Source of the DNA: an uncultured Bacilli bacterium
GTDB lineage: Bacteria > Bacillota_I > Bacilli_A > RF39 > UBA660
DNA length: 64,000 bases
Direction: 5' to 3'
Assembly: GCA_934131175.1 (NCBI GenBank)
Contig: CAKOZD010000007.1
Location: forward strand, 62 to 64,061
Below the pieces are notes generated by a model. The model was not told the DNA's origin. It ran no database searches and saw only the letters and a program-made list of their open reading frames with translations. A program made the position numbers and the translations under genes. This document shows positions 39,131 through 59,562 of this stretch, piece by piece. How positions within the stretch are numbered: position 1 is the stretch's first letter; each line of letters begins with the position of its first letter.

Positions 39131-39162
39131 TTAACTAGTTATAGGTGATATTACTTGAAATG

Positions 39163-39191: not shown

Positions 39192-39223
39192 ATGCGAAAC
39201 AATTGGTAAGGGGAGAGAAGAAT

Positions 39224-40579: not shown

Positions 40580-40588
40580 AATATAATT

Positions 40589-40615
40589 GAAAGGTGGAAA
40601 CACCTTTCTTTTTTT
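40589..40615 (+). terminator. rho-independent terminator
   Basis: GAAAGGTG-GAAA-CACCTTTC hairpin followed by T7. Confidence 0.85.
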
Positions 40616-40674
40616 ATACTAAAGAATATAGCATGACATTATCATAAAATGATTACAAAATAATTAAAAAGATA

Positions 40675-40703
40675 TTGAATTAGAAGGAAAAATATGCTAT
40701 AAT
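40675..40703 (+). promoter_or_regulatory. sigma-A type promoter
   Basis: TTGAAT, 17-bp spacer, TGcTATAAT. Confidence 0.75.
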
Positions 40704-40791
40704 ATGCCTCAATTTGGGGAGAAACTTGTAAAAAAAGTGAGAACTCTAGAAGTAAATATTTAAAATAGTTAAAGAAAAAGGGGAAACAAAA

Positions 40792-43695
40792 ATGAAAAAT
40801 AAAAATGATAATATAAAAAATATTTATCAAAAATTTAAAGCAAGTAAAAAATTAGTTGCTGCAGCAGTAATTGCTTTACCGTTAGTATTTTCTATTAGTG
40901 GATGTGCAAAAGGAAAAGATGATACATTATGTTTGGTTGATTTAACAGATGAATTAGAAAATGATGCAAAATTGCTTACAATGGATGAAAGTAGTGAAAT
41001 TAACTTAGAAACAGAAGAAAAAAGCAAATTATTAGCAATTATAGATAAGAATCAAACTAAAGAAAATGATTTATATGAAGTATTTATAATTAATGAGGCT
41101 GGAAAAATATTTAATGGTAAAATGCAAGAAAAGTATTTAGATAATAAGAGTATAGATGAAATAGAAATAGATAAGGATACAGTAAGTAAAGTTTCAAAAA
41201 TATTATTTGATACAAATTTATCTACAAAAGATGACAATTCAAATGAGAACAATTTAAAAAGTGAGAGTTTTGTAATAACGAATTTTAGTGAAACTAAAAA
41301 TATAGATTCTAATGAAAATGAAATTATCTATATTGAAAATAATCAATTAAAAACAGGAACAATTGATTCTAGTAATTTATATGTTTTAGATGATAATAAC
41401 AATAATACTGAAGTAGAAAAATATATTGTTAATGTTGAAGGATTAAATTTAAGAAAAGAAGCATCAGTCCAAAGTGAAAGTGTTGATAAACTCAAGATTG
41501 GAACAGAAGTATTGGTTCTTGGACACGATAATGAAACATCTGATGCTCCTATGGAATGGTGTAATATTGCAGTTAATATAGATGGTAAGATAAAAAGAGG
41601 ATATGTTTGTAAAAATTTGTATGATGGTGGTAAAAAGATAAAATATTTATTAACACCAGAAGAATATAATGAACAAATTAATTCTCAAGAAGAAGTAATA
41701 GAAGATGTTATAGAGCAAGAACAAGAAGAGACTGAGCAAGCAAACCAAAAACCAAAAGAACAAGTATCAAACGTACAAAATAATACAGATAAAATGAATT
41801 TTGATTCGAGAATTTTTTACATTAGTTCGTCAAAAATATTAGAAAATGATTTTACAGAATTAAAAGAAGAAGCATCTACTTTTTCAAGAACTATTGAAAC
41901 TTTGGATGACAACACAATTGTATATATAAAGGCAAATGAAAATTCAAATTATGATTCGTGGATAAAAGTTCACACACTTAATGATAAAATAGGATATGTA
42001 TCGTCTGATTGTATATTTGATAAAGAAACAGGTCAAGCATTATCTAGTTATATAAAAAATAATTATTTTTCAAATGAATCTTCAGAAAAAGTATCTTCTC
42101 AAATTGAGCAACCTGAAAGTTTCTTGAAAAGTGAAAATCAAAATACTAAAGAATTAGAAAGTCAGGAAATAAAAGAATCTGATAATCAAGAAGAAAGTGA
42201 AGAAACCCAAAAAACAAATTTAAGAATATTTTATGTTAATGGTGCTATATCATCTGATGATGGCAGAGTTAATATAAGAAAATTAGCAGACTCTGAATCT
42301 GAACTAGTAGCTACACTAGATAAAGACACTCAAATATATATTGACTATACAGAAGCACTTGACAATGATGGATGGCTAAAAATATCTGGAATAAAGAATA
42401 GTGATGGACAGGATGAAGTTATATCAGGATATGTAAGTTCTAACTTTGTTTTTGATAAAGAGACTGAAAAAACAGTAAGGGAATTTATAGAAGAGAATGA
42501 AGTTGATGAAAATAATTTTTCACACAAAACAGAACTTAAAAAATTTTATGTAGATGGTTCAATCGATTGCGAAAGCGAAATCGTAAATATCAGAAAAGAT
42601 GCAACTGTAAATTCAGAACGTGTCTTAACTATAAATAATGGAACTCAAGTATATATTGATTATACAGCTCCGCTTGATAATAACGGTTGGACAAAAATAT
42701 GTGGCATAAAAACAAAAGATGGAAATTTTGAAAAAGTAGCAGGTTATATAAGTTCAAATTTTATATATGAATATGATGGTGAAAACTCTATAATGGATTT
42801 TGTAAAAAATAATGAATTAGAAAATATAAATAAAAATATAAACTCTGAATCAGAAAACGTTGAAGCACCATATGGTGATTATAAAATTATAGATATTTCA
42901 GAACACAATGGTACTATTGATTTTAAAAAATTAAAAGAAAATGGATATAATCAGATTCTTATTCGTATGTTCGATACATTTTTTATGTCAGATTATAGCG
43001 AAGACTCAATGAATAAAGTTGATCTTAAATTTGAGGAATACATAGAGGAATGTAAAAAATATGATATTGATTACGGCTTTTATATATATTCAAGAGCAAC
43101 TACAGAGAAAATGGCAAAATTAGAAGCAATAAAAGTATTATATTTATTAAATAAATATGATTTAAGACCAACATTACCTATATATTGGGATATTGAATCG
43201 CAAGAAAGTGAACCACTATATAGTGAAGAAGATGGGATAATAAATAAAGATGAAAAATATAGTTCACCAGACTTTATAAATTACTATCCAGAACAAGTAA
43301 TTAATAATTTTTATGCCTTTGCAGAAATACTTGAAAATTCAAATTATAAGGTAGGAATATATTCTGGAGATAATGTTTTAAATACAATAGACCCAGAAGG
43401 TGACAAATTAACTGGATATAGTGTATGGAACGCAAGTTATTGTTATGGAGAAACACAATGTGATTATGATGTTAATTACAAGACAAATAATTTAAAATAT
43501 GCAGGAGATACAGCTATTTTTCAATTTTCAGATACAGGGAGAATAGAAGGAATAAATGGAAATGTGGACTGTAATTATGGGAAGTATGATTATACAAAAG
43601 AAATAAAAGAAAATAATATGAATTATCCAATATCTTTTGATGAAATAAAAAGTAAACAAGAAGAAATATTGTCAGGAACAGAAAAATATAGATAA
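40792..43695 (+). CDS. lipoprotein cell-wall hydrolase: SH3b-like repeats plus a C-terminal GH25 muramidase
   Basis: Lipobox LVFSISGC. Four SH3b-like modules end in GY[VI]SS[DN][CF][IV]F. The C-terminal domain has IIDISEHNGTIDF...FQFSDTGRIEGINGNVDCNY, typical of GH25. Confidence 0.8.
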   Translation: MKNKNDNIKNIYQKFKASKKLVAAAVIALPLVFSISGCAKGKDDTLCLVDLTDELENDAKLLTMDESSEINLETEEKSKLLAIIDKNQTKENDLYEVFIINEAGKIFNGKMQEKYLDNKSIDEIEIDKDTVSKVSKILFDTNLSTKDDNSNENNLKSESFVITNFSETKNIDSNENEIIYIENNQLKTGTIDSSNLYVLDDNNNNTEVEKYIVNVEGLNLRKEASVQSESVDKLKIGTEVLVLGHDNETSDAPMEWCNIAVNIDGKIKRGYVCKNLYDGGKKIKYLLTPEEYNEQINSQEEVIEDVIEQEQEETEQANQKPKEQVSNVQNNTDKMNFDSRIFYISSSKILENDFTELKEEASTFSRTIETLDDNTIVYIKANENSNYDSWIKVHTLNDKIGYVSSDCIFDKETGQALSSYIKNNYFSNESSEKVSSQIEQPESFLKSENQNTKELESQEIKESDNQEESEETQKTNLRIFYVNGAISSDDGRVNIRKLADSESELVATLDKDTQIYIDYTEALDNDGWLKISGIKNSDGQDEVISGYVSSNFVFDKETEKTVREFIEENEVDENNFSHKTELKKFYVDGSIDCESEIVNIRKDATVNSERVLTINNGTQVYIDYTAPLDNNGWTKICGIKTKDGNFEKVAGYISSNFIYEYDGENSIMDFVKNNELENINKNINSESENVEAPYGDYKIIDISEHNGTIDFKKLKENGYNQILIRMFDTFFMSDYSEDSMNKVDLKFEEYIEECKKYDIDYGFYIYSRATTEKMAKLEAIKVLYLLNKYDLRPTLPIYWDIESQESEPLYSEEDGIINKDEKYSSPDFINYYPEQVINNFYAFAEILENSNYKVGIYSGDNVLNTIDPEGDKLTGYSVWNASYCYGETQCDYDVNYKTNNLKYAGDTAIFQFSDTGRIEGINGNVDCNYGKYDYTKEIKENNMNYPISFDEIKSKQEEILSGTEKYR

Positions 43696-43722
43696 AAAGC
43701 AGGTAATTAAACCTGTTTTTTT
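43695..43722 (+). terminator. rho-independent terminator
   Basis: AAAAGCAGGT-AATTAA-ACCTGTTTTT hairpin followed by a T-run. Confidence 0.75.
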
Positions 43723-43731
43723 ATGATTGTA

Positions 43732-43762
43732 TTGACTCTCAAGTTAACTTGAATGATAAGGT
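43732..43762 (+). promoter_or_regulatory. MerR-type promoter/operator (19-bp spacer), same operator as at 11001
   Basis: TTGACT, 19-bp spacer, TAAGGT. The spacer contains the perfect 14-bp palindrome TCAAGTTAACTTGA (43739-43752). Confidence 0.7.
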
Positions 43763-43784
43763 ATCACCCGAAAGGGGAGTTAAT

Positions 43785-44069
43785 ATGGGTTGCAATAGTT
43801 GCAGATTTTTAAATGAAAATAAAAAGAAAGAAGGTGCATGTGGAGCATGCTATTATTGCAGTAAACTAAAAGCATATATAAATGGAGCATATAATCAATC
43901 ATGTGATGATTATAAATATGATTATGCTAAGAAAAATTATCAGAAAGATGAAATATATAAAGATGGAAGAAACTATTCATCAGATAATACTGATATTGGA
44001 ACATATATATTTATTTTAGTGATAATAGTAATATTAGACATAATATTTAATTTCATCTTTCCAATTTAA
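43785..44069 (+). CDS. small Cys-rich (zinc-ribbon-like) protein with a C-terminal TM anchor
   Basis: ATG 43785 follows an AAAGGGGAG RBS. Contains CNSC...CGACYYC and the C-terminal hydrophobic stretch IFILVIIVILDIIFNFIF. Confidence 0.65.
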   Translation: MGCNSCRFLNENKKKEGACGACYYCSKLKAYINGAYNQSCDDYKYDYAKKNYQKDEIYKDGRNYSSDNTDIGTYIFILVIIVILDIIFNFIFPI

Positions 44070-44168
44070 ATATTTCAAAAATGTAATGTATAGTAATATT
44101 TAATTAATGACTAAAAATGCAATATATAGTAAAATACTTAAAGAAAGAAAACTGAAAGGATTAAAAAT

Positions 44169-45266
44169 ATGATTTATCTAACATCTATAAAAATATCATT
44201 CTTAATATTTCCATTTATTGCACTTTTAATAACAATTCCATATATATTAATACAATACCATAAGTATGGATCAATAAATAAATTAAGAGTTTTAATAGTA
44301 TATTCATTCATTTTGTATCTACTAACAATTTACTTTTTAGTAATACTTCCATTACCACCACTAGATCTTGTAAAGAACTTGACATCTCCAAAGTATCAGT
44401 TAATACCATTTAATTTTATAATTGATTTTATAAAAGATAATCCATTGGTATTAAATAATCCAAAAACTTATATAAAAGCACTGCTTGATCCGAATGTTTA
44501 TACAGTACTATTTAATATTATTATGACAATTCCGTATGGAATGTACTTAAATTACTATTTCAAAAAAGATTTAAAAACTGTTATAAAATATACATTTCTA
44601 CTATCATTATTTTTTGAATTAACTCAGTTAACAGGATTATATTTTATTTATCCTAGACCATACAGATTATTTGATGTAGATGACTTAATGATTAATACAT
44701 TAGGAGGAATAGTAGGTTATTTTATAATGAATAAATTAAAAATATTACTACCATCAAGAGAAGAAATAGATGAAAAATCAATAAATGACTCAGTAAATGT
44801 ATCAGTACTCAGAAAATTAACAAGTATTCTAATAGATATATTTATATACATAGTATTAATAACTTTTATAAATATATTTATAAATAATCAAATAATAAAT
44901 TATATAATATTAATAATTTACTTTATAATAATACCAACTATAAATAATAAAACCTTAGGAATGAGCTTTGTTAATATAAAGTATGATGTTGCAAATAAAA
45001 GAATATTAAGAATATCTCTAAGACAAGTAATTATATATTTATATTATATAGAACCTCCTAAAATTATATTTTATTTATTTAATGTATTGAGTATTGAAAG
45101 TAATATAAAAATCGTATTATATATATTAACAATGATCATTTTATTTATAGTTTATTTAGTAAGTATAATAAAATTTCTATTAAAAAAAGATTTATTCTAT
45201 GACAAATTATTAAAAGTAAATATTTTGAGTACTATAAAAGTTAATAAAAATGTAATTGAAGAGTAA
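44169..45266 (+). CDS. VanZ-like / RDD-domain membrane protein
   Basis: The N-terminal half has ELTQLTG...FDVDDLMINTLGGIVGY (VanZ-like). The C-terminal half is a polytopic RDD-like region. Confidence 0.65.
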   Translation: MIYLTSIKISFLIFPFIALLITIPYILIQYHKYGSINKLRVLIVYSFILYLLTIYFLVILPLPPLDLVKNLTSPKYQLIPFNFIIDFIKDNPLVLNNPKTYIKALLDPNVYTVLFNIIMTIPYGMYLNYYFKKDLKTVIKYTFLLSLFFELTQLTGLYFIYPRPYRLFDVDDLMINTLGGIVGYFIMNKLKILLPSREEIDEKSINDSVNVSVLRKLTSILIDIFIYIVLITFINIFINNQIINYIILIIYFIIIPTINNKTLGMSFVNIKYDVANKRILRISLRQVIIYLYYIEPPKIIFYLFNVLSIESNIKIVLYILTMIILFIVYLVSIIKFLLKKDLFYDKLLKVNILSTIKVNKNVIEE

Positions 45267-45284
45267 TAGTTACCATGTTATAAT
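45256..45284 (+). promoter_or_regulatory. strong sigma-A type promoter overlapping the VanZ-like stop codon
   Basis: TTGAAG, 17-bp spacer, TGtTATAAT. Confidence 0.65.
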
Positions 45285-45316
45285 GAAGACATAGGTAAGG
45301 ATGTGGAGAGAAAAAT

Positions 45317-45351
45317 AAAACTAATGCAAGAATAATTGTATTAGTTTTTTT
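45317..45351. terminator. bidirectional rho-independent terminator
   Basis: 13-bp stem AAAACTAATGCAA/TTGTATTAGTTTT with one G-U pair, flanked by A and T runs. Confidence 0.75.
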
Positions 45352-45353
45352 GC

Positions 45354-45451
45354 AAAAAAAAGCGACTGCCTATGCAGTCTCTCAAATAAATGAGTATTTA
45401 GGGTAAAACCTTTATTTTAACTCTCTATGTCATCTTAAATGGTATTAAGAT
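45354..45451 (-). ncRNA. tracrRNA: tracrRNA (trans-activating CRISPR RNA)
   Basis: The minus strand carries a 25-nt perfect complement of repeat positions 9-33. It is followed by GAGUUAAAAUAAAGG (bulge, lower stem and nexus-like, as in the S. pyogenes tracrRNA), a CUCA/UGAG hairpin, and a GACUGC-AUAG-GCAGUC terminator with U8. Confidence 0.9.
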
Positions 45452-45457
45452 AATATG

Positions 45458-45486
45458 ATAATACCATATTGTAGGAGGTAAGTCAA
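45458..45486 (-). promoter_or_regulatory. tracrRNA promoter
   Basis: On the minus strand, TTGACT (45486-45481), 17-bp spacer, TATTAT (45463-45458). The -35 hexamer overlaps the first base of the cas9 ATG. Confidence 0.7.
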
Positions 45487-48400
45487 TGGCAGCAAAAAAA
45501 GAATATAATATTGGTTTGGATATTGGAACAACTTCGGTTGGTTGGAGTGTAGTTGAAGCTAATAATCAAAAAGTAATGCGTAAAGGTAATAAAGCACTTT
45601 GGGGAGTTAGACTGTTTGAAGAGGCAACAACTGCAGAATCAAGAAGAATGCAAAGAAGTACTAGAAGAAGATATGATAGAAGACGAGAAAGAATAAAATT
45701 ACTTCAAGATGAGTTTAGTGAAGAAATAAATAAAGTGGATGAAAAATTTTTTCAAAAGTTAAAAGAGTCAAAATATGTTGAGAGTGATAAAGAAAATAAA
45801 AAGATAATTTTAGCAAAAGAGGAAAAGAAAGAATTAAGAGAATATCAAAATAAATATAAAACTATATATCATTTAAGAGATGAATTAATAAATAATCCTG
45901 AAAAGAAAGATATAAGACTTGTATATCTTGCAATTCATCATATTATAAAATATAGAGGTAACTTCTTATATCAAAGTTCAAATTTTAATATAGATAATTT
46001 AGATATAAAAGATAAGTTAAATGAGTTATTTTCTGTACTTTCAAATAATATTCAAGAATTAGAGATACCAGAAGATTATACAGATATAATTAACTTAAGT
46101 TTATTAGAAAAGGATTTATTAAAAGAAACTAAAAATGATGTTAAAGCTTCACTAATAAATGATTTATCAGACATAACAAATAAGAGTTTTGCAACAGAAT
46201 TAGGTAAATTAATGGTTGGTAATAAAGGTAATATTAATAAATTATTAATGCTTGAAAGTGATAATAAAATTGAAATTAGTTTTAGCGGTACTGACTATGA
46301 TGATAAATATGAAGAATATCAAGATACATTAGGAGAAAATATAGAAATACTAGATATTTTAAAGCAAATCTATGACTGTATTTTCTTAAAAAAGATATTT
46401 AAAGGTAACCAAAATACGAGCATTTCAAGTTTGATGGTAAAATACTTTGAACAACATAAGAAAGATTTGAATTTCTTAAAAGAATTATTTAGAAATAATC
46501 GTGAATTATATAATTCAATATTTAGAACTAAAAAAGATTTATGTTTATATGACAAGTATATTACTAATAAGATAGATTATGATGAGTTTAAGAAAGAAAT
46601 TAATAAATTATTAGAAGAATTATTTAGTCACGAAGAAGTACTTATTGAACAAGATTTATTAGATGAGTATAATTTGAAGATAAAATCAAAAATTGAAAAT
46701 GGTAATTTTCTTCCTAGAATAACTACGACTGATAATGGTAAATATCCATATCAATTAAATAAATCAGAATTAATAAAAATAATAGAAAATCAAGGAAAAT
46801 ATTATCCATTCTTATTAGATAAAATAAATGACAATAAAACATATAAGATTGTTAAATTATTAGAATTTAGAATTCCTTATTATGTTGGTCCATTGGTATC
46901 TGAAAAAAGAAGCAAGAATGCTTGGCTAGAAAGAAAAATCAATGATATTAAGATAACTCCATATAATTTTGATGATGTAGTTGATAAAGAAAAGACAGCA
47001 GAAAAGTTTATTAAAAGAATGATTTCTCATTGTACATATTTATTGGATGAATACGCACTTGCGAATAACTCTATATTATATTCTAAATTTAAAGTTATGA
47101 ATGAACTAAAGCAAATAAGGGTAAATGATAGAAAGTTAGAATTGAAATTTCAACAACAAATATTAGAAGACTTTTTCATGAAGACATCTGGCACAATTAC
47201 TGAAAAGAAGTTTAAGAATTATTTAATTTCAACTGGTGAATGTAATATGGAAGGAGGAAATTTAAGAATAACTGGATATTCTGCAGATGGTAAGTTTGCT
47301 AATAATATGCAGTCTTATGTAGATTTCTTTGGAGAAAATGGAATATTTGCCGGTACTGATTATGATGAAGAAAATGCAGAAGAAATAATTGAATGGATCA
47401 CAATCTTTGAAGATAAAGATATTTTAGAAAAGAAAGTTAGAGATAATTATAGTAAGTTAAGTGAGAATCAAATAAAGAAAGTTTTAGCAAAGAAATATTC
47501 TGGCTGGGGAAGTTTATCTAAAAAACTTTTAAAAACTAAATATTATAAAGATAAAGAGACAGAATTATATAAATCAATATTAGATTTAATGTATGAAACT
47601 GAAAATAATTTTATGCAGATAATAAATAATGATAAATATAATTTTCAAGAAATGATACAAGAGTTTAATAATAGTAAAGAAAGTAAAAAATTAAATTATT
47701 CAATGGTCGATGAGTTAGCAACTTCTCCTGCAACAAAAAGAGGTATATACCAAGCCTTAAAAGTTGTAGAAGAGTTAGTTGATTATATTGGATATGAACC
47801 AAAAAATATTTCAATTGAAATGGCAAGAAGTGACGAAGAAAAAGTAAGAAAAGATTCAAGAAAAGACTATATTAAAAAGCTGTATGATAGTTGTAAAAAT
47901 TCAATAGATAATTATAAAAAATTGAAACATGAGTTGGATAGTCATGAAATAACTAGTCAAAGATTATTCTTATACTTTATTCAAGAAGGCAAATGTTTAT
48001 ATTCTGGTACACCATTAAATATCGAAGATATAGAAAATCAGTCTTTATATGAAATTGATCATATAATTCCAAGGTCATTAATAAAAGATGACTCAATTGA
48101 TAATAAAGCGTTAGTATTAAAAAAATGTAATCAAGATAAAAAGGCAAGTTACGTTTTACCGCCTCAGTTTAGAACTGAACATCAAATAGAATGGTGGAAA
48201 CGTTTAAAAGATAATCATTTAATGTCAGCAAAGAAGTTTTATCACTTAACAAGAAAGAAATATGATGAAGATGATATCAACGGATTTATCAATAGACAAT
48301 TGGTTGAAACAAGACAAATTACAAAACATGTTGCTAATATTTTAAAGAATTTACATAAGGATTCTAATATCATTTATTTGAAAGCCGACTTATCACACAA

Positions 48401-49523
48401 TTATCGTGAAAAGTATGATTTATTTAAATTTAGAGACATAAATGATTATCATCATGCTCATGATGCTTATCTTGCAGCTGTATTAGGTGAATATAAAGAA
48501 AAATTTATGAAAAGAAAAATAAATTTTGATATGGTTAGAGAACTTAATAATAAGATTGTTGAAATGGATGAAGGCAAAAGAAAAAATCTTAGATTTGGAT
48601 ATGTAATTAATAGTTTGGATGAAAATTTAAATGATATAGTTTTAAAAATTTCAGAAAACTTAGTTGATAATGAGACTGGTGAAGTATTATTTGATGCACA
48701 TGAATTTAATAAGAGAGTAGAAGATACTTTATATAGAAATGATATTATGGTTAGTAGAAAGACTGAGATAAGAGCAGGTGCATTTTATAAAGAAACGATA
48801 TATAAAAAAGGCAAAGGAATTATTCCTATAAAACTTGGTATGCCAACTGAAATATATGGTGGATATTCAAATACAAATACAAAAAAATTGATGCTCATTG
48901 AATATAATGAAAATCAGAAAAAAATTATTGGACTTCCAATGGCATTGGATGCAAGAAATAAAGATGATGAAATTAATGATTATATTAAAACACAGATTAA
49001 TTTGAAAAAAGATTCAACATTTAGTATAAAAAAATATTCTATTCCTTTTGAAACGGAAGTAATATATAATAATCAAAATGTTTTTATAAAAGGATATGGT
49101 ATAGTTCAAAAAAATTGTGAAGTGTCAAATGCAGTTCAATTAAAAATAGCAAAAGATAAGATGAAACATTGGAAATATGCACTTCAATATTTATTGAATG
49201 ATAAAAAGCAATATATTGAATATGCAGAAAAATATGTAAATGATATTTATGATTTTCTAATTAATTTAGATTTATTTCCGTTATTTAATAAAGAATTAGA
49301 TAAAATAAAAAATAAAGTTAATTTTGAAAATTTAGATTTAGATCAACAAAAGAAAATAATAAGTGAATTATTTAAGATGTTTCATTGTAACAGTGTTAAT
49401 GCTAATTTATCTGAATTTGGACTTGGTGATAGAATTGGACGCTTGAAAGGGAATAATATAACAACAGGTATAATTATTTCAAAATCTGTAACTGGAATAA
49501 GAGAGTCAAGATATGAGTTTTAG
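45486..49523 (+). CDS. cas9: CRISPR-associated endonuclease Cas9 (type II-A)
   Basis: 1345 aa with a GGAGG RBS. Contains RuvC-I IGLDIGTTSVGW (D12), the Arg-rich bridge helix RRMQRSTRRRYDRRRERI, RuvC-II ISIEMAR (E778), HNH YEIDHIIPRS...CNQDK (H859, N882) and RuvC-III DYHHAHDAYL (H990, D993). Confidence 0.97.
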   Translation: MAAKKEYNIGLDIGTTSVGWSVVEANNQKVMRKGNKALWGVRLFEEATTAESRRMQRSTRRRYDRRRERIKLLQDEFSEEINKVDEKFFQKLKESKYVESDKENKKIILAKEEKKELREYQNKYKTIYHLRDELINNPEKKDIRLVYLAIHHIIKYRGNFLYQSSNFNIDNLDIKDKLNELFSVLSNNIQELEIPEDYTDIINLSLLEKDLLKETKNDVKASLINDLSDITNKSFATELGKLMVGNKGNINKLLMLESDNKIEISFSGTDYDDKYEEYQDTLGENIEILDILKQIYDCIFLKKIFKGNQNTSISSLMVKYFEQHKKDLNFLKELFRNNRELYNSIFRTKKDLCLYDKYITNKIDYDEFKKEINKLLEELFSHEEVLIEQDLLDEYNLKIKSKIENGNFLPRITTTDNGKYPYQLNKSELIKIIENQGKYYPFLLDKINDNKTYKIVKLLEFRIPYYVGPLVSEKRSKNAWLERKINDIKITPYNFDDVVDKEKTAEKFIKRMISHCTYLLDEYALANNSILYSKFKVMNELKQIRVNDRKLELKFQQQILEDFFMKTSGTITEKKFKNYLISTGECNMEGGNLRITGYSADGKFANNMQSYVDFFGENGIFAGTDYDEENAEEIIEWITIFEDKDILEKKVRDNYSKLSENQIKKVLAKKYSGWGSLSKKLLKTKYYKDKETELYKSILDLMYETENNFMQIINNDKYNFQEMIQEFNNSKESKKLNYSMVDELATSPATKRGIYQALKVVEELVDYIGYEPKNISIEMARSDEEKVRKDSRKDYIKKLYDSCKNSIDNYKKLKHELDSHEITSQRLFLYFIQEGKCLYSGTPLNIEDIENQSLYEIDHIIPRSLIKDDSIDNKALVLKKCNQDKKASYVLPPQFRTEHQIEWWKRLKDNHLMSAKKFYHLTRKKYDEDDINGFINRQLVETRQITKHVANILKNLHKDSNIIYLKADLSHNYREKYDLFKFRDINDYHHAHDAYLAAVLGEYKEKFMKRKINFDMVRELNNKIVEMDEGKRKNLRFGYVINSLDENLNDIVLKISENLVDNETGEVLFDAHEFNKRVEDTLYRNDIMVSRKTEIRAGAFYKETIYKKGKGIIPIKLGMPTEIYGGYSNTNTKKLMLIEYNENQKKIIGLPMALDARNKDDEINDYIKTQINLKKDSTFSIKKYSIPFETEVIYNNQNVFIKGYGIVQKNCEVSNAVQLKIAKDKMKHWKYALQYLLNDKKQYIEYAEKYVNDIYDFLINLDLFPLFNKELDKIKNKVNFENLDLDQQKKIISELFKMFHCNSVNANLSEFGLGDRIGRLKGNNITTGIIISKSVTGIRESRYEF

Positions 49524-50385
49524 AACAGTTGTTATTACTAAACAATCTAAGATTAGTTATAAAAATAGATTTCTTGTAGTAAAACAGGAAAATGATGAGA
49601 AGTATATTCATTTATCAGAAATAGATACAATAATAGTAGATTCTATATCAGTATCTATTTCTGCATATCTTTTAAAAGAACTTGCAGATAATAAAATAAA
49701 TATAATATTTTGTGATGAAAAGCATAATCCATTTGGTGAAGTTGTTCCATATTACTCAAAACATAATACCAGTAAAATGATTAAAGAACAAATTAAATGG
49801 AAAGCATCTGACAAAGATAAAATATGGACAGAGATAGTAAAAAATAAAATTATGAATCAAGCTTTGTTGCTTAAGAAAACTAAATCATCAAAATATAAAC
49901 TGATTTTAAGTTATATTGATGAAGTTGTTGACGGAGATAAAACAAATAGAGAAGGTCATGCAGCAAAAGTTTATTTCAATGCTCTATTTGGAAATGATTT
50001 TGTTAGAAATTCAGATGATTCTATAAATGCAGCATTAAACTATGGATATGCAATTTTACTTTCAACAATCAATAAAGAAATTATTAATAATGGGTATTTA
50101 ACGCAACTTGGAATCCATCACAAAAATGAATTTAATGAGTTTAATTTAACTTGCGATTTAATGGAACCATTTAGAATAGTAATTGATAACTTTGTCTATT
50201 ATAATCAAGAAAGAAAACTTGATACAGAATATAAACTTGATATTGTAAATATTTTGAACGGAACTTTTAAGTATCAAGGAAAAAATTACACATTAAAAGA
50301 TATTATAAAAATGTTTGTAAAGAATACTTTAGAATCAATAAATAATTCAGAAAAATATAAGGAATTTGTATATTATGAGGGATAG
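49513..50385 (+). CDS. cas1: CRISPR-associated endonuclease Cas1 (type II)
   Basis: 290 aa, overlapping cas9 by 11 nt. Motifs include NREGHAAKVYFNALFG, ALNYGYAIL and GIHH. Confidence 0.93.
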   Translation: MSFRTVVITKQSKISYKNRFLVVKQENDEKYIHLSEIDTIIVDSISVSISAYLLKELADNKINIIFCDEKHNPFGEVVPYYSKHNTSKMIKEQIKWKASDKDKIWTEIVKNKIMNQALLLKKTKSSKYKLILSYIDEVVDGDKTNREGHAAKVYFNALFGNDFVRNSDDSINAALNYGYAILLSTINKEIINNGYLTQLGIHHKNEFNEFNLTCDLMEPFRIVIDNFVYYNQERKLDTEYKLDIVNILNGTFKYQGKNYTLKDIIKMFVKNTLESINNSEKYKEFVYYEG

Positions 50386-50389
50386 AGTT

Positions 50390-50695
50390 ATGAGGACAAT
50401 TGTATTTTTTGATCTTCCAAATGTGTATTCTAAAGATAAAAGAGCATATCTAATGTTCAGAAAGTTTTTGATTAATGAAGGGTTTATAATGATGCAAGAA
50501 TCAGTGTACTCAAAAATCGTTTTAAATTCTCAACAATCAAATGCTTTAGTTGAAAGAATAAGAAAAAAGGCCCCCCAAAAAGGTATAATACAAGTAATGA
50601 GTATAACAGAAAAACAATATTCCCAAATAGAATTTATTACAGGAAGTAGCAATAGTAAAATAATAAATAGTGAAGAAAGATTAATAGTATTATGA
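50390..50695 (+). CDS. cas2: CRISPR-associated endoribonuclease Cas2
   Basis: MRTIVFFDLP...MQESVYSK is the typical Cas2 ferredoxin-fold pattern. ATG 50390 follows a GAGGGA RBS, so the track's 50366 start is less likely. Confidence 0.9.
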   Translation: MRTIVFFDLPNVYSKDKRAYLMFRKFLINEGFIMMQESVYSKIVLNSQQSNALVERIRKKAPQKGIIQVMSITEKQYSQIEFITGSSNSKIINSEERLIVL

Positions 50696-51369
50696 AAATA
50701 AAAATAGACTTTATTGATTCAATAATAGATTTTGATAATTCAAATGTATATTCATTTGAGATACATAATAAAAAGTATTTATATAGAATTTCATCATTAT
50801 TTTATAGTATTAGTAATGGTGATTTACCAGAAGAGGTTGAATGCTTTGATAAAGATAACAATGAATTAAAGATAAGTAATAAAATAAGATTCTTTTCTGA
50901 ATATTTTGACTTTGGATTTGATTCTAAAAAATATTCAGCAGATATCACTAAATATATTTTATCTAATATAGAACAATATGATAGTGAGAATATTCTAAGA
51001 ACATTCTCTAAATTATGTAAATTAATTGATAATGAGTTACAGAAGACAGATTTATCAATATCAGTCTCTACAGAAGAAGGTATTGAAAATGTAATTAAAA
51101 TGTTTAAGATTAAAATAAATCAAAAAGAAGATTTACTAGATAATTTACTCTTAATAGTTGATTTAGAAGTTGCATTAAATTCTAATAAATTATTATGCTT
51201 TATGAATTTAAAACAATATTTAACTAAAGAAGAAGTAATTGAATTTTATAAATATGCAACATATAACTCAATAAAAATAATAATGATAGAATCTACTAAA
51301 TATGACTATTTTAGCAATTATGAAAAAGTTATAGTTATTGATCAAAGTTTAGATGAAAGTATGATATAA
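50692..51369 (+). CDS. csn2: CRISPR-associated protein Csn2 (type II-A marker)
   Basis: 225 aa, ATGA overlap with cas2. The call rests on its position between cas2 and the leader, and its size fits the short Csn2 family. Confidence 0.8.
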   Translation: MKIKIDFIDSIIDFDNSNVYSFEIHNKKYLYRISSLFYSISNGDLPEEVECFDKDNNELKISNKIRFFSEYFDFGFDSKKYSADITKYILSNIEQYDSENILRTFSKLCKLIDNELQKTDLSISVSTEEGIENVIKMFKIKINQKEDLLDNLLLIVDLEVALNSNKLLCFMNLKQYLTKEEVIEFYKYATYNSIKIIMIESTKYDYFSNYEKVIVIDQSLDESMI

Positions 51370-51449
51370 TAATTATAGATGAAATAGAATTTATCATTTA
51401 AGAGCTACACATCTCTATTACTGTAGTAGTAGAATTAAAACTATTTGAG
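51362..51449 (+). promoter_or_regulatory. CRISPR leader with candidate promoter and leader-anchoring motif
   Basis: TGaTATAAT (51362-51370) overlaps the csn2 stop codon. The leader ends in ATTTGAG directly before repeat 1. Confidence 0.7.
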
Positions 51450-54400
51450 GTTTTAGTTCTATGTCATCTTAAATGGTATTAAAACATACGATTGTTAGCA
51501 TCACCAATATATATCGTTTTAGTTCTATGTCATCTTAAATGGTATTAAAACTACTTCTACTAGTTTACCTCGATGTCCTTTGTTTTAGTTCTATGTCATC
51601 TTAAATGGTATTAAAACAGTACAACATTTACAATCATTAACAGACAAGTTTTAGTTCTATGTCATCTTAAATGGTATTAAAACCGGATTCAATAAATTAA
51701 ATACTGCTATCACGTTTTAGTTCTATGTCATCTTAAATGGTATTAAAACTGTAAACTTCTAGCAGTACTGCTATTTGCTGTTTTAGTTCTATGTCATCTT
51801 AAATGGTATTAAAACAATTAAATCATTTATTAAAAAATATTGTTAGTTTTAGTTCTATGTCATCTTAAATGGTATTAAAACATTTAAGCACTTTACTTAG
51901 AAAGAAAGTAGGTTTTAGTTCTATGTCATCTTAAATGGTATTAAAACAACTGCTCTCTATTCATATTTATTATTAATGTTTTAGTTCTATGTCATCTTAA
52001 ATGGTATTAAAACATTAGAGATATATAATCCCTTAAATTATAAGTTTTAGTTCTATGTCATCTTAAATGGTATTAAAACAACATTTGCAACAAACAATGA
52101 AAAAGATATGTTTTAGTTCTATGTCATCTTAAATGGTATTAAAACAATATGGGTTTGAATATTATAAAACAATATGTTTTAGTTCTATGTCATCTTAAAT
52201 GGTATTAAAACAATTAGGAAGTGCTGGAAAAGCAATAGGAAGTTTTAGTTCTATGTCATCTTAAATGGTATTAAAACTCCTGAGTCATATTCATAATACG
52301 TCTTCATGTTTTAGTTCTATGTCATCTTAAATGGTATTAAAACTTTCTTGTGATTGTGTAATAACTGGTTCACGTTTTAGTTCTATGTCATCTTAAATGG
52401 TATTAAAACGGCAATGGATATGGAATGTATGCAGATGACGTTTTAGTTCTATGTCATCTTAAATGGTATTAAAACTTGACAACACCCAAATAAATTACTT
52501 GATATGTTTTAGTTCTATGTCATCTTAAATGGTATTAAAACCTTAATTGTTCCATCTTCTAACTCACATACGTTTTAGTTCTATGTCATCTTAAATGGTA
52601 TTAAAACGAACTTTAATTATATATTTCTCGGCTTTCTGTTTTAGTTCTATGTCATCTTAAATGGTATTAAAACACTTAAATTCTTCTACGAAACCTACTG
52701 GAAGTTTTAGTTCTATGTCATCTTAAATGGTATTAAAACTTAGGAGAGGTTTTAACAGATGCTAACTTAGTTTTAGTTCTATGTCATCTTAAATGGTATT
52801 AAAACAATAAAAAATTAAACTTCTCTGGTCTTATTGTTTTAGTTCTATGTCATCTTAAATGGTATTAAAACTAGTACAGTGCTTATTAAAGTGCTAGAAA
52901 GGTTTTAGTTCTATGTCATCTTAAATGGTATTAAAACAAAGTATTTGAAGGAGAATATCAAGATATAGTTTTAGTTCTATGTCATCTTAAATGGTATTAA
53001 AACCTTATCCAAATTCATTTGATACGAATTATTGTTTTAGTTCTATGTCATCTTAAATGGTATTAAAACCGATGAAACAAGCCGTATAAAGGCTAATATG
53101 TTTTAGTTCTATGTCATCTTAAATGGTATTAAAACCTTAATACCAAGCGAATTAAATTGGGACTAGTTTTAGTTCTATGTCATCTTAAATGGTATTAAAA
53201 CGCTTATCCAAATTCATTTGATACGAATTATGTTTTAGTTCTATGTCATCTTAAATGGTATTAAAACACCCCTAGAAATTCAAGCCCTAGAAAATCAGTT
53301 TTAGTTCTATGTCATCTTAAATGGTATTAAAACCTTATTAATATTTCAAAAAATGGAATGCTTGTTTTAGTTCTATGTCATCTTAAATGGTATTAAAACC
53401 ATCATAAATAATAACAAGTTGCTTATCTTGTTTTAGTTCTATGTCATCTTAAATGGTATTAAAACTGATGATGACATACGTCTAGCATATCGAGGGTTTT
53501 AGTTCTATGTCATCTTAAATGGTATTAAAACAAAGTTAAAGTTAAAAGGAGAACTAAATAAGTTTTAGTTCTATGTCATCTTAAATGGTATTAAAACATT
53601 TGGAATCCAGTATTTATTAACTCCTGTGTTTTAGTTCTATGTCATCTTAAATGGTATTAAAACTGACCATTTGCACACTACGACTAAAGCAAAGTTTTAG
53701 TTCTATGTCATCTTAAATGGTATTAAAACTTCTTTAATGAATAAAAATCTTTCTTTTAGGTTTTAGTTCTATGTCATCTTAAATGGTATTAAAACGATAA
53801 CTAAAACACCAACTACACCTGCAATGTTTTAGTTCTATGTCATCTTAAATGGTATTAAAACAGTTTATTGTTACAATGGTTCGCAAGGAAAGTTTTAGTT
53901 CTATGTCATCTTAAATGGTATTAAAACCATCATAAATTATGACTAATTGCTTATCATGTTTTAGTTCTATGTCATCTTAAATGGTATTAAAACCATCTAA
54001 TTCATTTCTTAATTTTAAGAACTGTTTTAGTTCTATGTCATCTTAAATGGTATTAAAACATGATTTTCTCACAAATAGGCTTACGATACGTTTTAGTTCT
54101 ATGTCATCTTAAATGGTATTAAAACACCCTAAATTCCCAGGATATTTTGTAGTAGGTTTTAGTTCTATGTCATCTTAAATGGTATTAAAACATTTCCACC
54201 TCCTTATAATAAAATAAGGCTGTTTTAGTTCTATGTCATCTTAAATGGTATTAAAACAATATATTTTTCTAATTTCTAGTACAAAATGTTTTAGTTCTAT
54301 GTCATCTTAAATGGTATTAAAACAAATGAAAAAAACTTTATATTTAGTAAAAAGTTTTAGTTCTATGTCATCTTAAATGGTATTAAAACAACAGATAAAA

Positions 54401-54719
54401 ACATTAAAGTTTATCAAGGGTTTTAGTTCTATGTCATCTTAAATGGTATTAAAACTGATTGATGGCAAAGTCGCAGGATATTTTAGTTTTAGTTCTATGT
54501 CATCTTAAATGGTATTAAAACTAAAACTAAGCACTGATAGATACATGATAAGTTTTAGTTCTATGTCATCTTAAATGGTATTAAAACTGGAGCATGAACT
54601 ATACCAGTCCAATAATTGTTTTAGTTCTATGTCATCTTAAATGGTATTAAAACCAAGACATGAAACTGGAAACTGGACTTCTAGTTTTAGTTCTATGTCA
54701 TCTTAAATGGTATTATGAT
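51450..54719 (+). CRISPR. type II-A CRISPR array: 50 repeats (36 bp) and 49 spacers (30 nt)
   Basis: GTTTTAGTTCTATGTCATCTTAAATGGTATTAAAAC recurs at an exact 66-bp period from 51450 to 54618. The terminal repeat at 54684 is degenerate (…GGTATTATGAT). Confidence 0.98.
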
Positions 54720-54765
54720 AAAACAGAGATTAAGACTTAACAAATTTTAAGATGGCAGAAATCCT

Positions 54766-54792
54766 AAAAGACTATTAAATAGTCTTTTATTT
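54766..54792 (+). terminator. rho-independent terminator of the pre-crRNA
   Basis: AAAAGACTAT-TAA-ATAGTCTTTT hairpin followed by ATTT. Confidence 0.75.
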
Positions 54793-54881
54793 GTATTTAA
54801 AATAAAAATTGATAAATTATCTATAAACTTTTTTTATATTTCATTTTCATAAAACTATGTTAGAATAAATAGAAAAAGTGG

Positions 54882-55919
54882 GTGGTTCATATTAATACAA
54901 TAGATATAATTTACAAATTTTTAGAGGAACAAGACTATTTAAATAGAAAAGATGTACTAGGAATAATATTTTATGGTAGTTCAAATTATAATACAGACAC
55001 TAAAGATTCTGACTTAGATTTATTAATCATAACAGACGATGAAAATAATTATAAAGGTGTTACTTATATAGATAATAAAAAAATAGAATATTTTGAAAAA
55101 AATGTTTATGATTTAACACAAAAAATAGAAGAACTTCCAAATGGTTTTGATCGTTCATTAGAATCAATATTTACTAATGGAAAAGTAATCTATGACAAAC
55201 ATAAAACTATTGAAAATCTAAAAGATTTAGTTTTAGAAAACAACGAATATCCAAGAAAGAAAAACCAAAATAAATTCTATTCAACATGTTTTTCAGAATT
55301 TAAAAATGCTTTTTTTAGTACAGATAAAACATCTCCATATTTTAATTATATCTATTACAACTTCTTAGAAGAAATCAGAAAAGAATATCATATACAAAAT
55401 GGTTATTCAAAATTACCAGTAAATAAAATAAAAAAGTTATATGAAAACAGTGATTACTCTGAAAAATATTATTGTGTTAAATTGCCAGATGCTAACTTTA
55501 GAAATTTATATATATCTTTATTAGAAAAATATAAAGATGAAGACTTTAGTATTCTTTTAAGTAAATTAAAAGAAAAACAAACAAGAAAAAAATGCTTTAG
55601 CGTTCGAAAAAATAACATTAAGTATTCTAGTACCATAATATATAGCTTACTTGAGAAGATTGTTGCGAAAGATATAAATGAAAAAGACTATTTGTCACTA
55701 TACTATATAGCACTGGAAAAAATACGTAACTTATATTGTGATATTAATAAACTTAACAATTCATTAGATAATATCTATGAATATGATTCTTCATTTTTAG
55801 AAATTTTTAATGAATGTATATCAAATCCATCAAAAGAAAATATAACTTTACTTTTTAATTATTTATCATCAAAAATAAATATAGATTATAAAAATTATAA
55901 AATATATGAATTATCCTAA
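54882..55919 (+). CDS. Pol-beta-superfamily nucleotidyltransferase (KNTase/Lnu-like architecture)
   Basis: IIFYGSSNYNTDTKDSDLDLLI fits the GS-x10-DxD NTase motif, followed by a helical C-terminal domain. The GTG start has a weak RBS, so the start is uncertain. Confidence 0.65.
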   Translation: MVHINTIDIIYKFLEEQDYLNRKDVLGIIFYGSSNYNTDTKDSDLDLLIITDDENNYKGVTYIDNKKIEYFEKNVYDLTQKIEELPNGFDRSLESIFTNGKVIYDKHKTIENLKDLVLENNEYPRKKNQNKFYSTCFSEFKNAFFSTDKTSPYFNYIYYNFLEEIRKEYHIQNGYSKLPVNKIKKLYENSDYSEKYYCVKLPDANFRNLYISLLEKYKDEDFSILLSKLKEKQTRKKCFSVRKNNIKYSSTIIYSLLEKIVAKDINEKDYLSLYYIALEKIRNLYCDINKLNNSLDNIYEYDSSFLEIFNECISNPSKENITLLFNYLSSKINIDYKNYKIYELS

Positions 55920-55991
55920 AAACAAAAAATAAAAAATAATATTTAAAAGCAGTTATGTTATAATGAATAACTATAGAAAGGAGATATTTTT

Positions 55992-56408
55992 ATGGAAAAA
56001 GAAGTTAGAAAAGAGGTAACATTTAGAGGAGACCCATTATTTCAAGTCATGACAACACCTCAACTTAATCAAAAAGTATTTTTTTTGAATGAGAATGCAA
56101 TTAATGAAGTTAAGTCATATTCTGAAGAAATAGATCTTTTCAATGTACCAGATTTAGTATTATCAAAATTATCAGAAAAACAAGCTAATACAAAATTTTT
56201 ATTAGCATTAGAAAGATGTGGAGAAACAGAATCACATTTACCAGAAACATTAATTGCTTACGCACAAACTGGAGAAGATGAATATAAATTAGAAGGAGTC
56301 TTTTCTGAAAGAAAAGAATATATTGCTCCTGAAACCGGTGAAGAAGTAAAATTAAATTACACTTATTCAAATAAAAAAATAAAAGTAAAAAAAATAAATA
56401 ATAAGTAA
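55992..56408 (+). CDS. hypothetical protein
   Basis: AAAGGAG RBS, 138 aa, no motif recognised. Confidence 0.65.
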   Translation: MEKEVRKEVTFRGDPLFQVMTTPQLNQKVFFLNENAINEVKSYSEEIDLFNVPDLVLSKLSEKQANTKFLLALERCGETESHLPETLIAYAQTGEDEYKLEGVFSERKEYIAPETGEEVKLNYTYSNKKIKVKKINNK

Positions 56409-56428
56409 CTGATGTAGTTGCTTTTTTT
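56404..56428 (+). terminator. rho-independent terminator
   Basis: AGTAACT-GATGT-AGTTGCT hairpin with one G-U pair, followed by T7. Confidence 0.65.
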
Positions 56429-56553
56429 CTTGCTTTTTATAAAATATGTTAAAATATTAGTAAATGCAACCTAAAATGTACAAAAAACAACCGAAAGTTG
56501 GTAGAATGCAACCAGTTTATTTTATATGATTGCTACATGAAAGGAGAAAGATT

Positions 56554-58170
56554 ATGAAATCAAATTTTGCAGATAATCTTAAAAAAATAAGAAAAGAAAA
56601 TAATTTGTCTCAAGAACAACTTGCAGATAAATTAGGAGTGTCAAGACAGAGTGTCTCTAAATGGGAGTCATCTGCTGCATATCCGGAAATGGACAAAGTA
56701 CTTCAACTATGTAAAATGTTTAATTTAAATATAGATGAATTACTAAATCAAAATATAAATGAGATACATGAAGAACAAGAAGGTAAGAATAAAATAAATA
56801 ATTACGTAAACAATTTTCTAGAATATATTACAAAAACAGTAAAATTATTCATGTCTTTATCATTTAAAGATAAAGTGAAATGTTTCGTCGAACAATTTAT
56901 TATTATATTATTTTTACTACTTATTTATTCAATCCTTGGAGGAGTAATGTCATCTGTAGTTGGCAGTATATTTGCCTTTGTACATGGAACTTTTTATTAC
57001 ACAATATATGGAATATTAAAAGGAATATATATATTCATGTGTTTAATACTATCAATAATTATAATTGCACATATATTTAAAATAAGGTATTTAGACTACT
57101 ATGAAATTGTAGAAAAAGAAGATAACACAGAAGGTAGTTTTCAAGAAGATAATTCATCTTCTAACAAACAAGAATTAATAAATGATAAAAAAATAATAAT
57201 AAGAGATCCAAAACATTCAGAATATAATTTTTTAAATGCTATGGTAAAAGTAATATTATTATTCATAAAATTCTTTGCATTATTTATATTTGCAACAGTA
57301 GCATTTATAATTATATTTGAAGTATTTGGACTAGTATTATCACTATATCACATTCCAACTCACAGTCTATTTATTGGAGTATCCCTTACTGCACTAGGTG
57401 TAATTGCTATTACAACAATAATATTAATATTATTATATTCATTTATATTTAATAGAAAGTCATCAATAAAAACATTATTTATAGTATTTATTGCATCACT
57501 TGCTTTATGTGGTATAGGAATTGGACAAGTATTTATTTGTACATTAAATATGAAATATGACAATAAGTCATTTAAAAATGATAATGAATTAGTGAAAGAA
57601 TTCACTTATAAAGATGGAATGAGTATAAATTCTTGGTATGACTATTATGAATTTGATGTTGATAATAATTTAGGTGACAAAGTAAAAGTAACAATAAAAT
57701 ATAATGATAAAACATATAAAGTAAATATGGTTGAAGATGAAAAAACAAATTCTATAGATTTGTCTTTTACAAATAATTTTAATGAATTTTCTAACACTTA
57801 TAAGTTAATAATAAATGATTTAAAAAATAATACTTTAAGTAGTATTGACTCATCATCCCCTGAAGTAGTAATAACTGCAAGTGAAGCAAATGTAAAAAAT
57901 ATGATTAATAAAAAGTCATCAAATAAAATGACAAATTTAGAACAACAAGGAAATAAATTTTTTCTCGATGAAGTAGATGACGATGAACAGATACTTTGTT
58001 ATCAAGAAAATGGTTTCTACAACAACTGTGTTTCTATAGAATTAGATGAAGGAAATATATCTGATTTTAAATATGACAGAGATGGACTTCATTATGATGA
58101 GAAAAAATATGAATGTTCTAATGATGATAGTAAATATTTCTATTGTGATCATAAAGATTATGATGATTAA
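56554..58170 (+). CDS. XRE-family HTH protein fused to a polytopic membrane region and an extracytoplasmic C-domain
   Basis: ATG 56554 follows an AAAGGAG RBS. LKKIRKENNLSQEQLADKLGVSRQSVSKWE is an HTH_3 motif. About 6 TM helices follow. Confidence 0.8.
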   Translation: MKSNFADNLKKIRKENNLSQEQLADKLGVSRQSVSKWESSAAYPEMDKVLQLCKMFNLNIDELLNQNINEIHEEQEGKNKINNYVNNFLEYITKTVKLFMSLSFKDKVKCFVEQFIIILFLLLIYSILGGVMSSVVGSIFAFVHGTFYYTIYGILKGIYIFMCLILSIIIIAHIFKIRYLDYYEIVEKEDNTEGSFQEDNSSSNKQELINDKKIIIRDPKHSEYNFLNAMVKVILLFIKFFALFIFATVAFIIIFEVFGLVLSLYHIPTHSLFIGVSLTALGVIAITTIILILLYSFIFNRKSSIKTLFIVFIASLALCGIGIGQVFICTLNMKYDNKSFKNDNELVKEFTYKDGMSINSWYDYYEFDVDNNLGDKVKVTIKYNDKTYKVNMVEDEKTNSIDLSFTNNFNEFSNTYKLIINDLKNNTLSSIDSSSPEVVITASEANVKNMINKKSSNKMTNLEQQGNKFFLDEVDDDEQILCYQENGFYNNCVSIELDEGNISDFKYDRDGLHYDEKKYECSNDDSKYFYCDHKDYDD

Positions 58171-58182
58171 TAATAAGTATTT

Positions 58183-58220
58183 AAAACTATATATAAAATA
58201 TTCTTATATATAGTTTTTTT
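58183..58220 (+). terminator. rho-independent terminator
   Basis: 14-bp stem AAAACTATATATAA/TTATATATAGTTTT followed by a T-run. Confidence 0.8.
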
Positions 58221-58291
58221 ATTAATATGATATAATATGCATTGATTTCATTAAAAGCAAAATTTTAAATATAAAGAAAAAGAGGGATTAG

Positions 58292-59410: not shown

Positions 59411-59562
59411 AAGCTAAGTAAGCAATTAAGTAAAATATTACTTTAAAATTCTTTTCAAATAAAAATATTTATGTTATAATTAACAAGGTTTTAATTGGAA
59501 ACGCACATCCTCTGGATGATAACGAACAACACAAAAGTTTATTATCGAAGGAGGATTTTATT

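Follow-up and report, generated by a model that had tools for sequence, protein, structure and literature searches.

Type II-A CRISPR-Cas9 systems have been described in Streptococcus pyogenes SF370, which encodes SpCas9 (1368 aa), and in Faecalibaculum rodentium. FrCas9, the enzyme of the latter (PDB 9jwk and 9jwn; 9jwk is FrCas9 according to PMC12926199), likewise belongs to the large type II-A Cas9 proteins and comes from a gut-dwelling member of the Bacillota; its protospacer adjacent motif (PAM) is NNTA (PMC11331784). We analyzed a locus of this type in a 64-kb stretch of DNA from an uncultured Bacilli bacterium (contig CAKOZD010000007.1; this whole stretch is hereafter “the window”). As in S. 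pyogenes, the genes cas9, cas1, cas2 and csn2 follow each other in this order, the trans-activating CRISPR RNA (tracrRNA) lies on the opposite strand, the repeats of 36 nt start with GTTTTAG and end with AAAAC, and the spacers are 30 nt long. The catalytic residues of Cas9 are common to both systems, and NGG is the apparent PAM in the window too. Disparities nevertheless appear. The Cas9 of the window (1345 aa) shares 34% identity with SpCas9 in a global alignment, for which the SpCas9 sequence was verified through its length (1368 aa) and its own catalytic positions. The PAM-interacting (PI) domains of the two proteins have no significant sequence match when the domain is taken alone, the second of the PAM arginines is displaced by a single position (DRIGR in the window, DRKRY in SpCas9), and the tracrRNA of the window starts only 34 nt from the cas9 ATG. 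The leaders also end differently, with ACGAG in S. pyogenes (PMC5382924) and with ATTTGAG, a Group 1 end, in the window. With FrCas9 the alignment covers residues 5–1232 and stops before the PI domain, and the PAMs, NNTA and apparently NGG, are not the same.

We hold with high confidence that this is a complete and intact type II-A CRISPR-Cas9 locus on the chromosome of an uncultured human-gut member of the Bacilli related to “Clostridium sp. CAG:451”. Six parts are intact in the sequence: a minus-strand tracrRNA, cas9, cas1, cas2, csn2, and a conserved leader with an array of 49 spacers. The locus is an ordinary one, a further member of a well-known family with a textbook architecture and no discovery, and it leaves the current understanding of type II-A systems as it was. 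It documents an active-looking Cas9 immunity, together with its target phages, in an uncultured gut lineage of the Bacilli about which little is known. It also provides an ortholog of the size of SpCas9, apparently recognizing NGG, with a fully predicted guide-RNA pair, which brings little gain over existing tools.

The cas genes and their products

According to the list of open reading frames (ORFs), the + strand carries four co-directional cas genes between 45486 and 51369. All four products score well above the curated NCBIfam cut-offs (Table 1), and these equivalog matches span nearly the entire profiles; the product of csn2 is likewise matched by Pfam Cas_Csn2. The earlier note on this DNA had read the operon as type II-A cas9-cas1-cas2-csn2, and had made the reading depend on a match of the 1345-aa protein to Cas9 profiles. 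The search run here gave 837 bits against a cut-off of 100, in agreement with it. Overlapping or abutting frames had also been announced for the downstream genes, and the overlaps measure 11 nt for cas9/cas1 and 4 nt for cas2/csn2. For cas2, two other starts were proposed, at 50390 (101 aa) by the gene caller of the source contig and at a TTG at 50366 in the mechanical ORF. The N-terminus of Cas2, MRDRVMRTIVFFDLP, resembles that of SpCas2.

The presence of Csn2 alongside Cas9, Cas1 and Cas2 places the locus in subtype II-A. No ORF other than csn2 was found between cas2 and the array, i.e. csn2 is present and cas4 absent, as in this subtype, and the layout is that of II-A, with the array 3' of csn2, a cas-proximal leader and a 36-nt repeat beginning with GTTT.

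The effector is of type II, with a split RuvC, an inserted HNH, a bridge helix and a REC lobe in one large protein (Pfam domains Cas9_REC, Cas9-BH, HNH_4, Cas9_RuvC and Cas9_PI). The catalytic residues are D12 (RuvC-I), E778 (RuvC-II), H859 and N882 (HNH), and H990 and D993 (RuvC-III), all at the positions counted previously. In a MAFFT alignment D10, E762, H840, H983 and D986 of SpCas9 stand opposite D12, E778, H859, H990 and D993. N863 of SpCas9 falls opposite D884, not N882, in this alignment; it corresponds to N882 only if the motifs LVLKKCNQDK and LTRSDKNRGK are set gap-free by eye. The PI domain extends approximately over residues 1098–1345 and contains the motif D1315-R1316-I-G-R1319. 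Among PDB sequences the best matches to the whole protein are 9jwk (FrCas9, 526 bits), 9vj8 (a Cas9, 521 bits) and SpCas9 (about 500 bits).

The leader and the repeat-spacer array

The repeats recur with a period of exactly 66 nt and the first 49 are identical (GTTTTAGTTCTATGTCATCTTAAATGGTATTAAAAC). The terminal one ends with TGAT instead of AAAC, i.e. with 3 changes within its last 4 nt. A 50-copy exact array is far beyond chance. The sequence thus contains what the earlier note had described, 50 repeats of 36 bp at a 66-bp period separated by 49 spacers of 30 nt, a deviation restricted to the distal repeat, and a leader of 80 bp. The polarity it had deduced, that of leader-proximal acquisition, fits both the degenerate repeat at the far end and the ATTTGAG end of the leader. 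Van Orden et al. describe ATTTGAG/GTTT as the end of type II-A leaders of Group 1, and in Streptococcus thermophilus CRISPR1 it was shown by experiment to be needed for spacer integration (PMC5382924). Across 11 related loci the leader hardly varies, and in all of them it ends with TTTGAG directly before GTTTTAG.

The arrays turn over completely between near-identical strains. Two loci in the same genomic context, L046 and L047, encode a Cas9 96% identical to that of the window and hold 19–22 spacers, none of them common to the window; their terminal repeat is degenerate in the same manner. As far as array contents can tell, this lack of any shared spacer indicates ongoing spacer acquisition.

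Several spacers are related to each other. Spacers 24 (53004..53033) and 27 (53202..53231) correspond to one protospacer with an offset of 1 nt, while spacers 30 (53400..53429) and 38 (53928..53957) are in the same register, differ at 5 positions and are variants of one site. Same-register pairs also occur between strains, in several cases. This suggests that acquisition returns again and again to the same protospacers in variant phages, either at hot-spots or because the PAM limits the choice.

Downstream of the array, an A/U-rich hairpin with an 11-bp stem (−9.6 kcal/mol by RNA folding) may, as a weak assignment, terminate the precursor of the CRISPR RNAs (pre-crRNA). The consensus terminator scan missed it because its stem has too few G-C pairs.

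The tracrRNA and the predicted guide RNA

Upstream of cas9 the + strand carries, at 45416..45451, a direct and imperfect copy of the repeat; an RNA complementary to the repeats of the crRNA would therefore be read from the minus strand. The tracrRNA that the earlier note had put at the head of the locus is indeed predicted upstream of cas9, with the refinement that it lies on the minus strand and would be transcribed away from cas9. Along its full length (positions 1–92), the Rfam tracrRNA model RF02348 matches 45450..45356 of the minus strand (30 bits, E-value of 0.0037). At the gathering threshold Rfam reports two tRNAs only in the window, the tracrRNA showing solely at the E-value threshold. 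The promoter scan proposes a site (TTGACT, a 17-nt spacer and TGgTATTAT) with 10 of 12 matches and an extended −10. The initial base of the cas9 start codon falls within its −35 hexamer, and both hexamers are kept in related loci. Together with the G+C-rich terminator hairpin, this promoter-like site sets the bounds of the putative transcript.

The predicted RNA contains, as is expected of a type II system, an anti-repeat complementary to the CRISPR repeat. The cofold of the repeat and the tracrRNA gives 33 intermolecular base pairs and −53.3 kcal/mol. The duplex consists of a 7-bp lower stem starting with a G·U pair, a 2-nt bulge on the tracrRNA side and an upper stem of about 26 bp. Past the anti-repeat the tracrRNA would form a GG/CC hairpin resembling a nexus, then another hairpin and lastly the terminator. 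As folded, the guide is of the SpCas9 type, with which it shares the lower stem, bulge, upper stem, nexus and hairpins. In related loci the anti-repeat is invariant (10 loci), six pairs of the terminator stem are changed on both sides, i.e. by compensatory changes, and the GG/CC of the nexus becomes GC/GC in L009. The predicted guide, as folded, thus comprises a crRNA made of a 20-nt spacer followed by GUUUUAGUUCUAUGUCAUCUUA, which either pairs with the tracrRNA of 98 nt or is joined to it by GAAA.

Table 1. Positions in the window of the features of the type II-A locus.
Feature	Position	Strand	Description	Basis
tracrRNA gene (predicted)	45354..45451	-	about 98 nt, read 45451→45354	Rfam, terminator scan, cofolding, covariation
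Anti-repeat	45414..45451	-	within the tracrRNA, upstream of cas9	
tracrRNA terminator	45379..45364, then 45361..45354	-	GACTGCATAGGCAGTC, then T8	terminator scan
tracrRNA promoter-like site	45458..45486	-	putative function	promoter scan
cas9	45486..49523	+	1345 aa	TIGR01865 (837 bits, cut-off 100), Pfam domains, catalytic residues
cas1, type II	49513..50385	+	290 aa	TIGR03639 (319 bits, cut-off 120; profile positions 1–276 of 278)
cas2	50375..50695	+	106 aa from ATG 50375	TIGR01573 (74 bits, cut-off 24.5)
csn2, subtype II-A signature gene	50692..51369	+	225 aa, short canonical form	TIGR01866 (111 bits, cut-off 35; profile positions 3–218 of 222)
Leader	51370..51449	+	80 bp, from csn2 stop to repeat 1, ends with ATTTGAG	read directly
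CRISPR array	51450..54719	+	50 repeats of 36 nt, 49 spacers of 30 nt	pattern search
Terminator-like hairpin	54765..54789	+	A/U-rich, then a U-rich tract; downstream of the array	RNA fold

Related loci

The window corresponds to part of a 72.9-kb metagenome contig (ERZ27287099:k141_366467), of which a 24-kb stretch is identical to positions 35486..59523 of the window. The closest genomes are metagenome-assembled genomes (MAGs) of uncultured gut Bacilli and “Clostridium sp. CAG:451”, with a Cas9 78–91% identical to that of the window; the Cas9 of Ca. Coprovivens is 56% identical. In a collection of 5.8 billion proteins the best matches reach 97% and 96%, and hundreds more lie at 85–92%. At NCBI a relative with 92% identity already bears the name “type II CRISPR RNA-guided endonuclease Cas9”, and the protein of CAG:451 (89%) that of “Csn1 family”. 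The papers searched contained no mention of this repeat, or of CAG:451 together with Cas9. This clade of Cas9 is thus annotated but apparently biochemically uncharacterised.

The loci of CAG:451 and the gut Bacilli MAGs (Cas9 89–97% identical) have a repeat that is identical or differs at one position, a near-identical tracrRNA anti-repeat and a highly similar leader, while their spacer content is wholly different from that of the window. Some relatives of the window Cas9 carry an unrelated PI cassette (see below).

The module from tracrRNA to array occupies two chromosomal sites. In the window and in relatives with 91–96% identity (L046, L059) it is flanked by a VanZ gene and a nucleotidyltransferase gene. 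In the CAG:451-like clade (89%; L052, L055, L063, L064, L066) its immediate upstream neighbour is a DDE_Tnp_1 transposase, and the site is bounded by xseB/DUF1653 and a SpoIVB-like peptidase. Conservation between the two sites starts abruptly at the tracrRNA terminator (about 45350).

Protospacers and the PAM

The earlier note had called the PAM unknown and had proposed to derive it by a BLAST of the spacers against phage, plasmid and metagenome databases. GenBank phages gave nothing for the window (see below), while IMG/VR provided one protospacer. For these scans the spacers were merged in pairs into IUPAC patterns and searched in IMG/VR or in JGI metagenomes, 17 spacers of the window being tested. 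From the merged pattern 31/45, spacer 45 alone (54390..54419) matched, in three related gut-phage contigs of IMG/VR (IMGVR_UViG_3300045988_181812, _182801 and _180532), with one mismatch at the PAM-distal position 4. The match lies inside the gene of the terminase large subunit and its 3' flank is TGGATTAGGT, i.e. TGG. Exact or merged scans of IMG/VR with spacers 24/27, 30/38, 34/37, 8/13 and 22/48 gave no match, nor did the scan of JGI metagenomes with spacers 12/19. With spacers 3/28 the sole JGI match was a 24/30 mosaic, rejected as probably due to chance. A search of more sequence of the target phage contigs gave no additional protospacers of the window.

Five further independent protospacers were found on the same phage for spacers from the arrays of L053, L054 and L065, whose PI domains are 86% identical to that of the window. 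Their 3' flanks are TGGTGAAGAT, TGGAGGGAAA, TGGTGACATT, TGGTGGTGGA and AGGAACAAAA; the 5' flanks show no relation to each other. NGG thus follows all six independent protospacers (five TGG and one AGG). The frequency of the GG dinucleotide in the phage is 0.023, which gives p ~1e-10 for six out of six by chance. The motif lies 3' on the non-target strand and the 5' flank is not conserved, as for a type II-A PAM.

A second line of evidence comes from overlapping spacers. Spacers of L008 and of L059/L060 stop 3 nt before the end of spacer 31 of the window, where AGG stands; this is the one informative case, most re-acquisitions being in the same register. From the six flanks, five of them belonging to relatives' arrays, and from this overlap, the PAM of the window Cas9, reported before as unknown, is very probably NGG. 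The PI domain alone has no significant match among PDB sequences, so that its PAM readout is not assignable by homology alone. In both HMMER and MAFFT alignments, D1315-R1316-I-G-R1319 stands opposite D1332-R1333-K-R1335 of SpCas9. This DRxGR motif, retained in 79 of 79 homologues with the PI type of the window, would fit an arginine readout of two guanines.

The target contigs represent a gut siphovirus-like phage of 27–32 kb with genes for the small and large terminase, the portal and the head protease; an ORF of 847 aa occupies the position of the tape measure. Spacers of at least six strains of this clade of Bacilli, with both PI types, target this phage, which links it to this uncultured host.

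Alternative readings of the PAM and of the locus

The PAM could be other than a simple NGG (e.g. NGGNG or a T-biased WGG), or NGG could hold only for the 86%-identical PI variants of the relatives. It is true that only one of the six protospacers derives from the window's own array. Position 5 is a G in four of the six flanks and position 1 a T in five, which is too few to interpret. A protospacer of L002 (PI domain 73–76% identical, 2 mismatches) has the flank GATGTG, which begins with GAT and weighs against NGG. This protospacer is the single match, 28/30, that the 99 pooled spacers of relatives gave in GenBank phages, and we treated it as an outlier from a more distant PI variant. Homology of the PI domain to a solved Cas9 is of no help here either. 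But the protospacer of the window's own spacer 45 carries TGG, DRxGR is invariant across the PI type of the window, and the overlap of spacers likewise points to AGG. We therefore regard these other PAMs as rather unlikely and retain NGG.

By homology with the systems of S. pyogenes and S. thermophilus, the array would be transcribed from the leader, each repeat would pair with the anti-repeat of the tracrRNA, and the duplex would be processed to mature crRNAs by the host RNase III and Cas9. The Cas9:crRNA:tracrRNA complex would then scan DNA for a 3' NGG PAM, form an R-loop and cut both strands with HNH (H859) and RuvC (D12/E778/H990/D993). Cas1-Cas2-Csn2, with Cas9 choosing the PAM, would insert spacers of 30 nt where leader and repeat meet, a junction that ATTTGAG marks. 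Several points weigh against such a working system. Expression of the crRNA and tracrRNA, their processing and the interference are all steps that we infer for this locus. The Rfam score of the tracrRNA is below the gathering score of 70, and the promoter scan gave no assignable site for cas9, its candidates lying at 45256..45284 and, with a weaker match, within the tracrRNA gene. No RNase III gene (rnc) was found in the 64-kb window; a candidate next to an SMC-like ORF was rejected, those ORFs being an ABC ATPase and an FtsX permease. None of the 49 spacers matched GenBank phages by BLAST, the 17 scanned in IMG/VR or JGI gave one real match, one likely chance match and otherwise nothing, and spacer 45 is thus the single one of the 49 with a protospacer. 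An anti-CRISPR may be encoded elsewhere in the genome, of which the view is limited to 64 kb. The locus could then be complete but silent or blocked, by repression of the cas operon, by a prophage anti-CRISPR or by loss of acquisition, and the array a historical record. This seems improbable to us. The 49 non-terminal repeats are identical and the catalytic and profile features intact, where a dead locus should have decayed; the spacer sets of near-identical strains are wholly different. In addition, spacers across the clade target contemporary, co-occurring gut phages beside the right PAM, and no self-targeting spacer was found within the window, hence no hint of a tolerated autoimmunity. Even less probable, to the point of being scarcely credible, is a mis-assembly that joined a CRISPR-Cas locus to chromosomal sequence unrelated to it. 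The source is a metagenome assembly (ENA ERZ27287099, contig k141_366467) and CRISPR arrays are hard to assemble, but the G+C content of about 25% is uniform through the window, exactly this Cas9 is present on five contigs, and the independent assemblies of relatives (Cas9 91–96%) share the flanks, with VanZ upstream and the nucleotidyltransferase downstream. Judged from its sequence, a functional type II-A system on a genuine chromosomal segment thus remains by far the most probable reading.

A probable exchange of the PI domain between related loci

We then considered the relatives with an unrelated PI cassette. Two of their Cas9 proteins, P0062 and P0063, are 94–95% identical to that of the window over residues 1–1090 and 34% identical in the PI domain. 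At the DNA level, identity to L003 and L004 is 83–99% from the tracrRNA through csn2 outside the PI region. It falls to 52–65% in the bins covering 48800..49399, is still reduced (71–75%) up to about 49550, and then returns to 98%. The swapped cassette corresponds to 48800..49470 of the window, i.e. residues ~1100–1328 of Cas9. The contrast opposes L003, L004 and L005 to L001, L002, L006, L007 and L008, and L004 and L008 have a common backbone with different cassettes. Overall, the backbones of the module are 87–98% identical in DNA and up to 95% in protein, the two cassettes being 34% identical to each other.

The array of L005 (type B) has three protospacers on the same phage, with the flanks AGAACC, AAGACC and TGAACC, none of which is NGG. 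We lean, by a small measure, towards the view that one conserved module carries either of two unrelated PI cassettes, exchanged by recombination at about 48800..49470 and reading NGG or an apparent NNRACC. This contrast of PAMs derives from 6 and 3 protospacers, respectively.

In Neisseria and streptococci, near-identical orthologs that differ in their PAMs are known to have exchanged PI domains (PMC7822910). Nme1, Nme2 and Nme3 Cas9 of Neisseria meningitidis (Edraki et al., via PMC7822910) have highly similar backbones, different PI domains and different PAMs. These are type II-C enzymes with N4-spaced PAMs, whereas the clade studied here is of type II-A. The clade would therefore be another instance of this exchange and not a new principle. 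If true, it would represent a natural switching of PAM in type II-A, counter to the escape of phages through their PAM, and a ready-made pair of guide-compatible Cas9s with different PAMs. The PI-swapped relatives, with the same guide RNAs and probably a different PAM, are the most useful lead in this region.

Other features of the window

Directly downstream of the array, 54882..56408 encodes a 345-aa protein with a nucleotidyltransferase domain (NTP_transf_2/Polbeta) and an ORF of 138 aa that no Pfam family matches; next comes a 546-aa protein resembling helix-turn-helix/CI repressors. The 345/138-aa pair is conserved beside the array in L046 and L059 and may represent a toxin-antitoxin or defence module.

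Neither of two large neighbouring ORFs at 5091..9494 (557 and 905 aa) has a Pfam match. The first contains a 39-nt tandem repeat in 3.6 copies (5720..5859), and the pair may encode repetitive surface or secreted proteins. On the minus strand, 20306..22180 holds an ORF of 624 aa without Pfam match, where the local GC skew turns negative. It is the largest of the few minus-strand ORFs, those of the window otherwise running together along the + strand.

TGA ends none of the 38 long ORFs of the + strand (29 end with TAA and 9 with TAG). Among about 16,000 codons there is no CGG, and AGG is used 19 times. An alternative code, with TGA or AGG reassigned, was considered and dropped, as no evidence for it was found: TGA is merely unused as a stop and AGG is rare. 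The skew of stops and codons probably reflects the extreme A+T bias.

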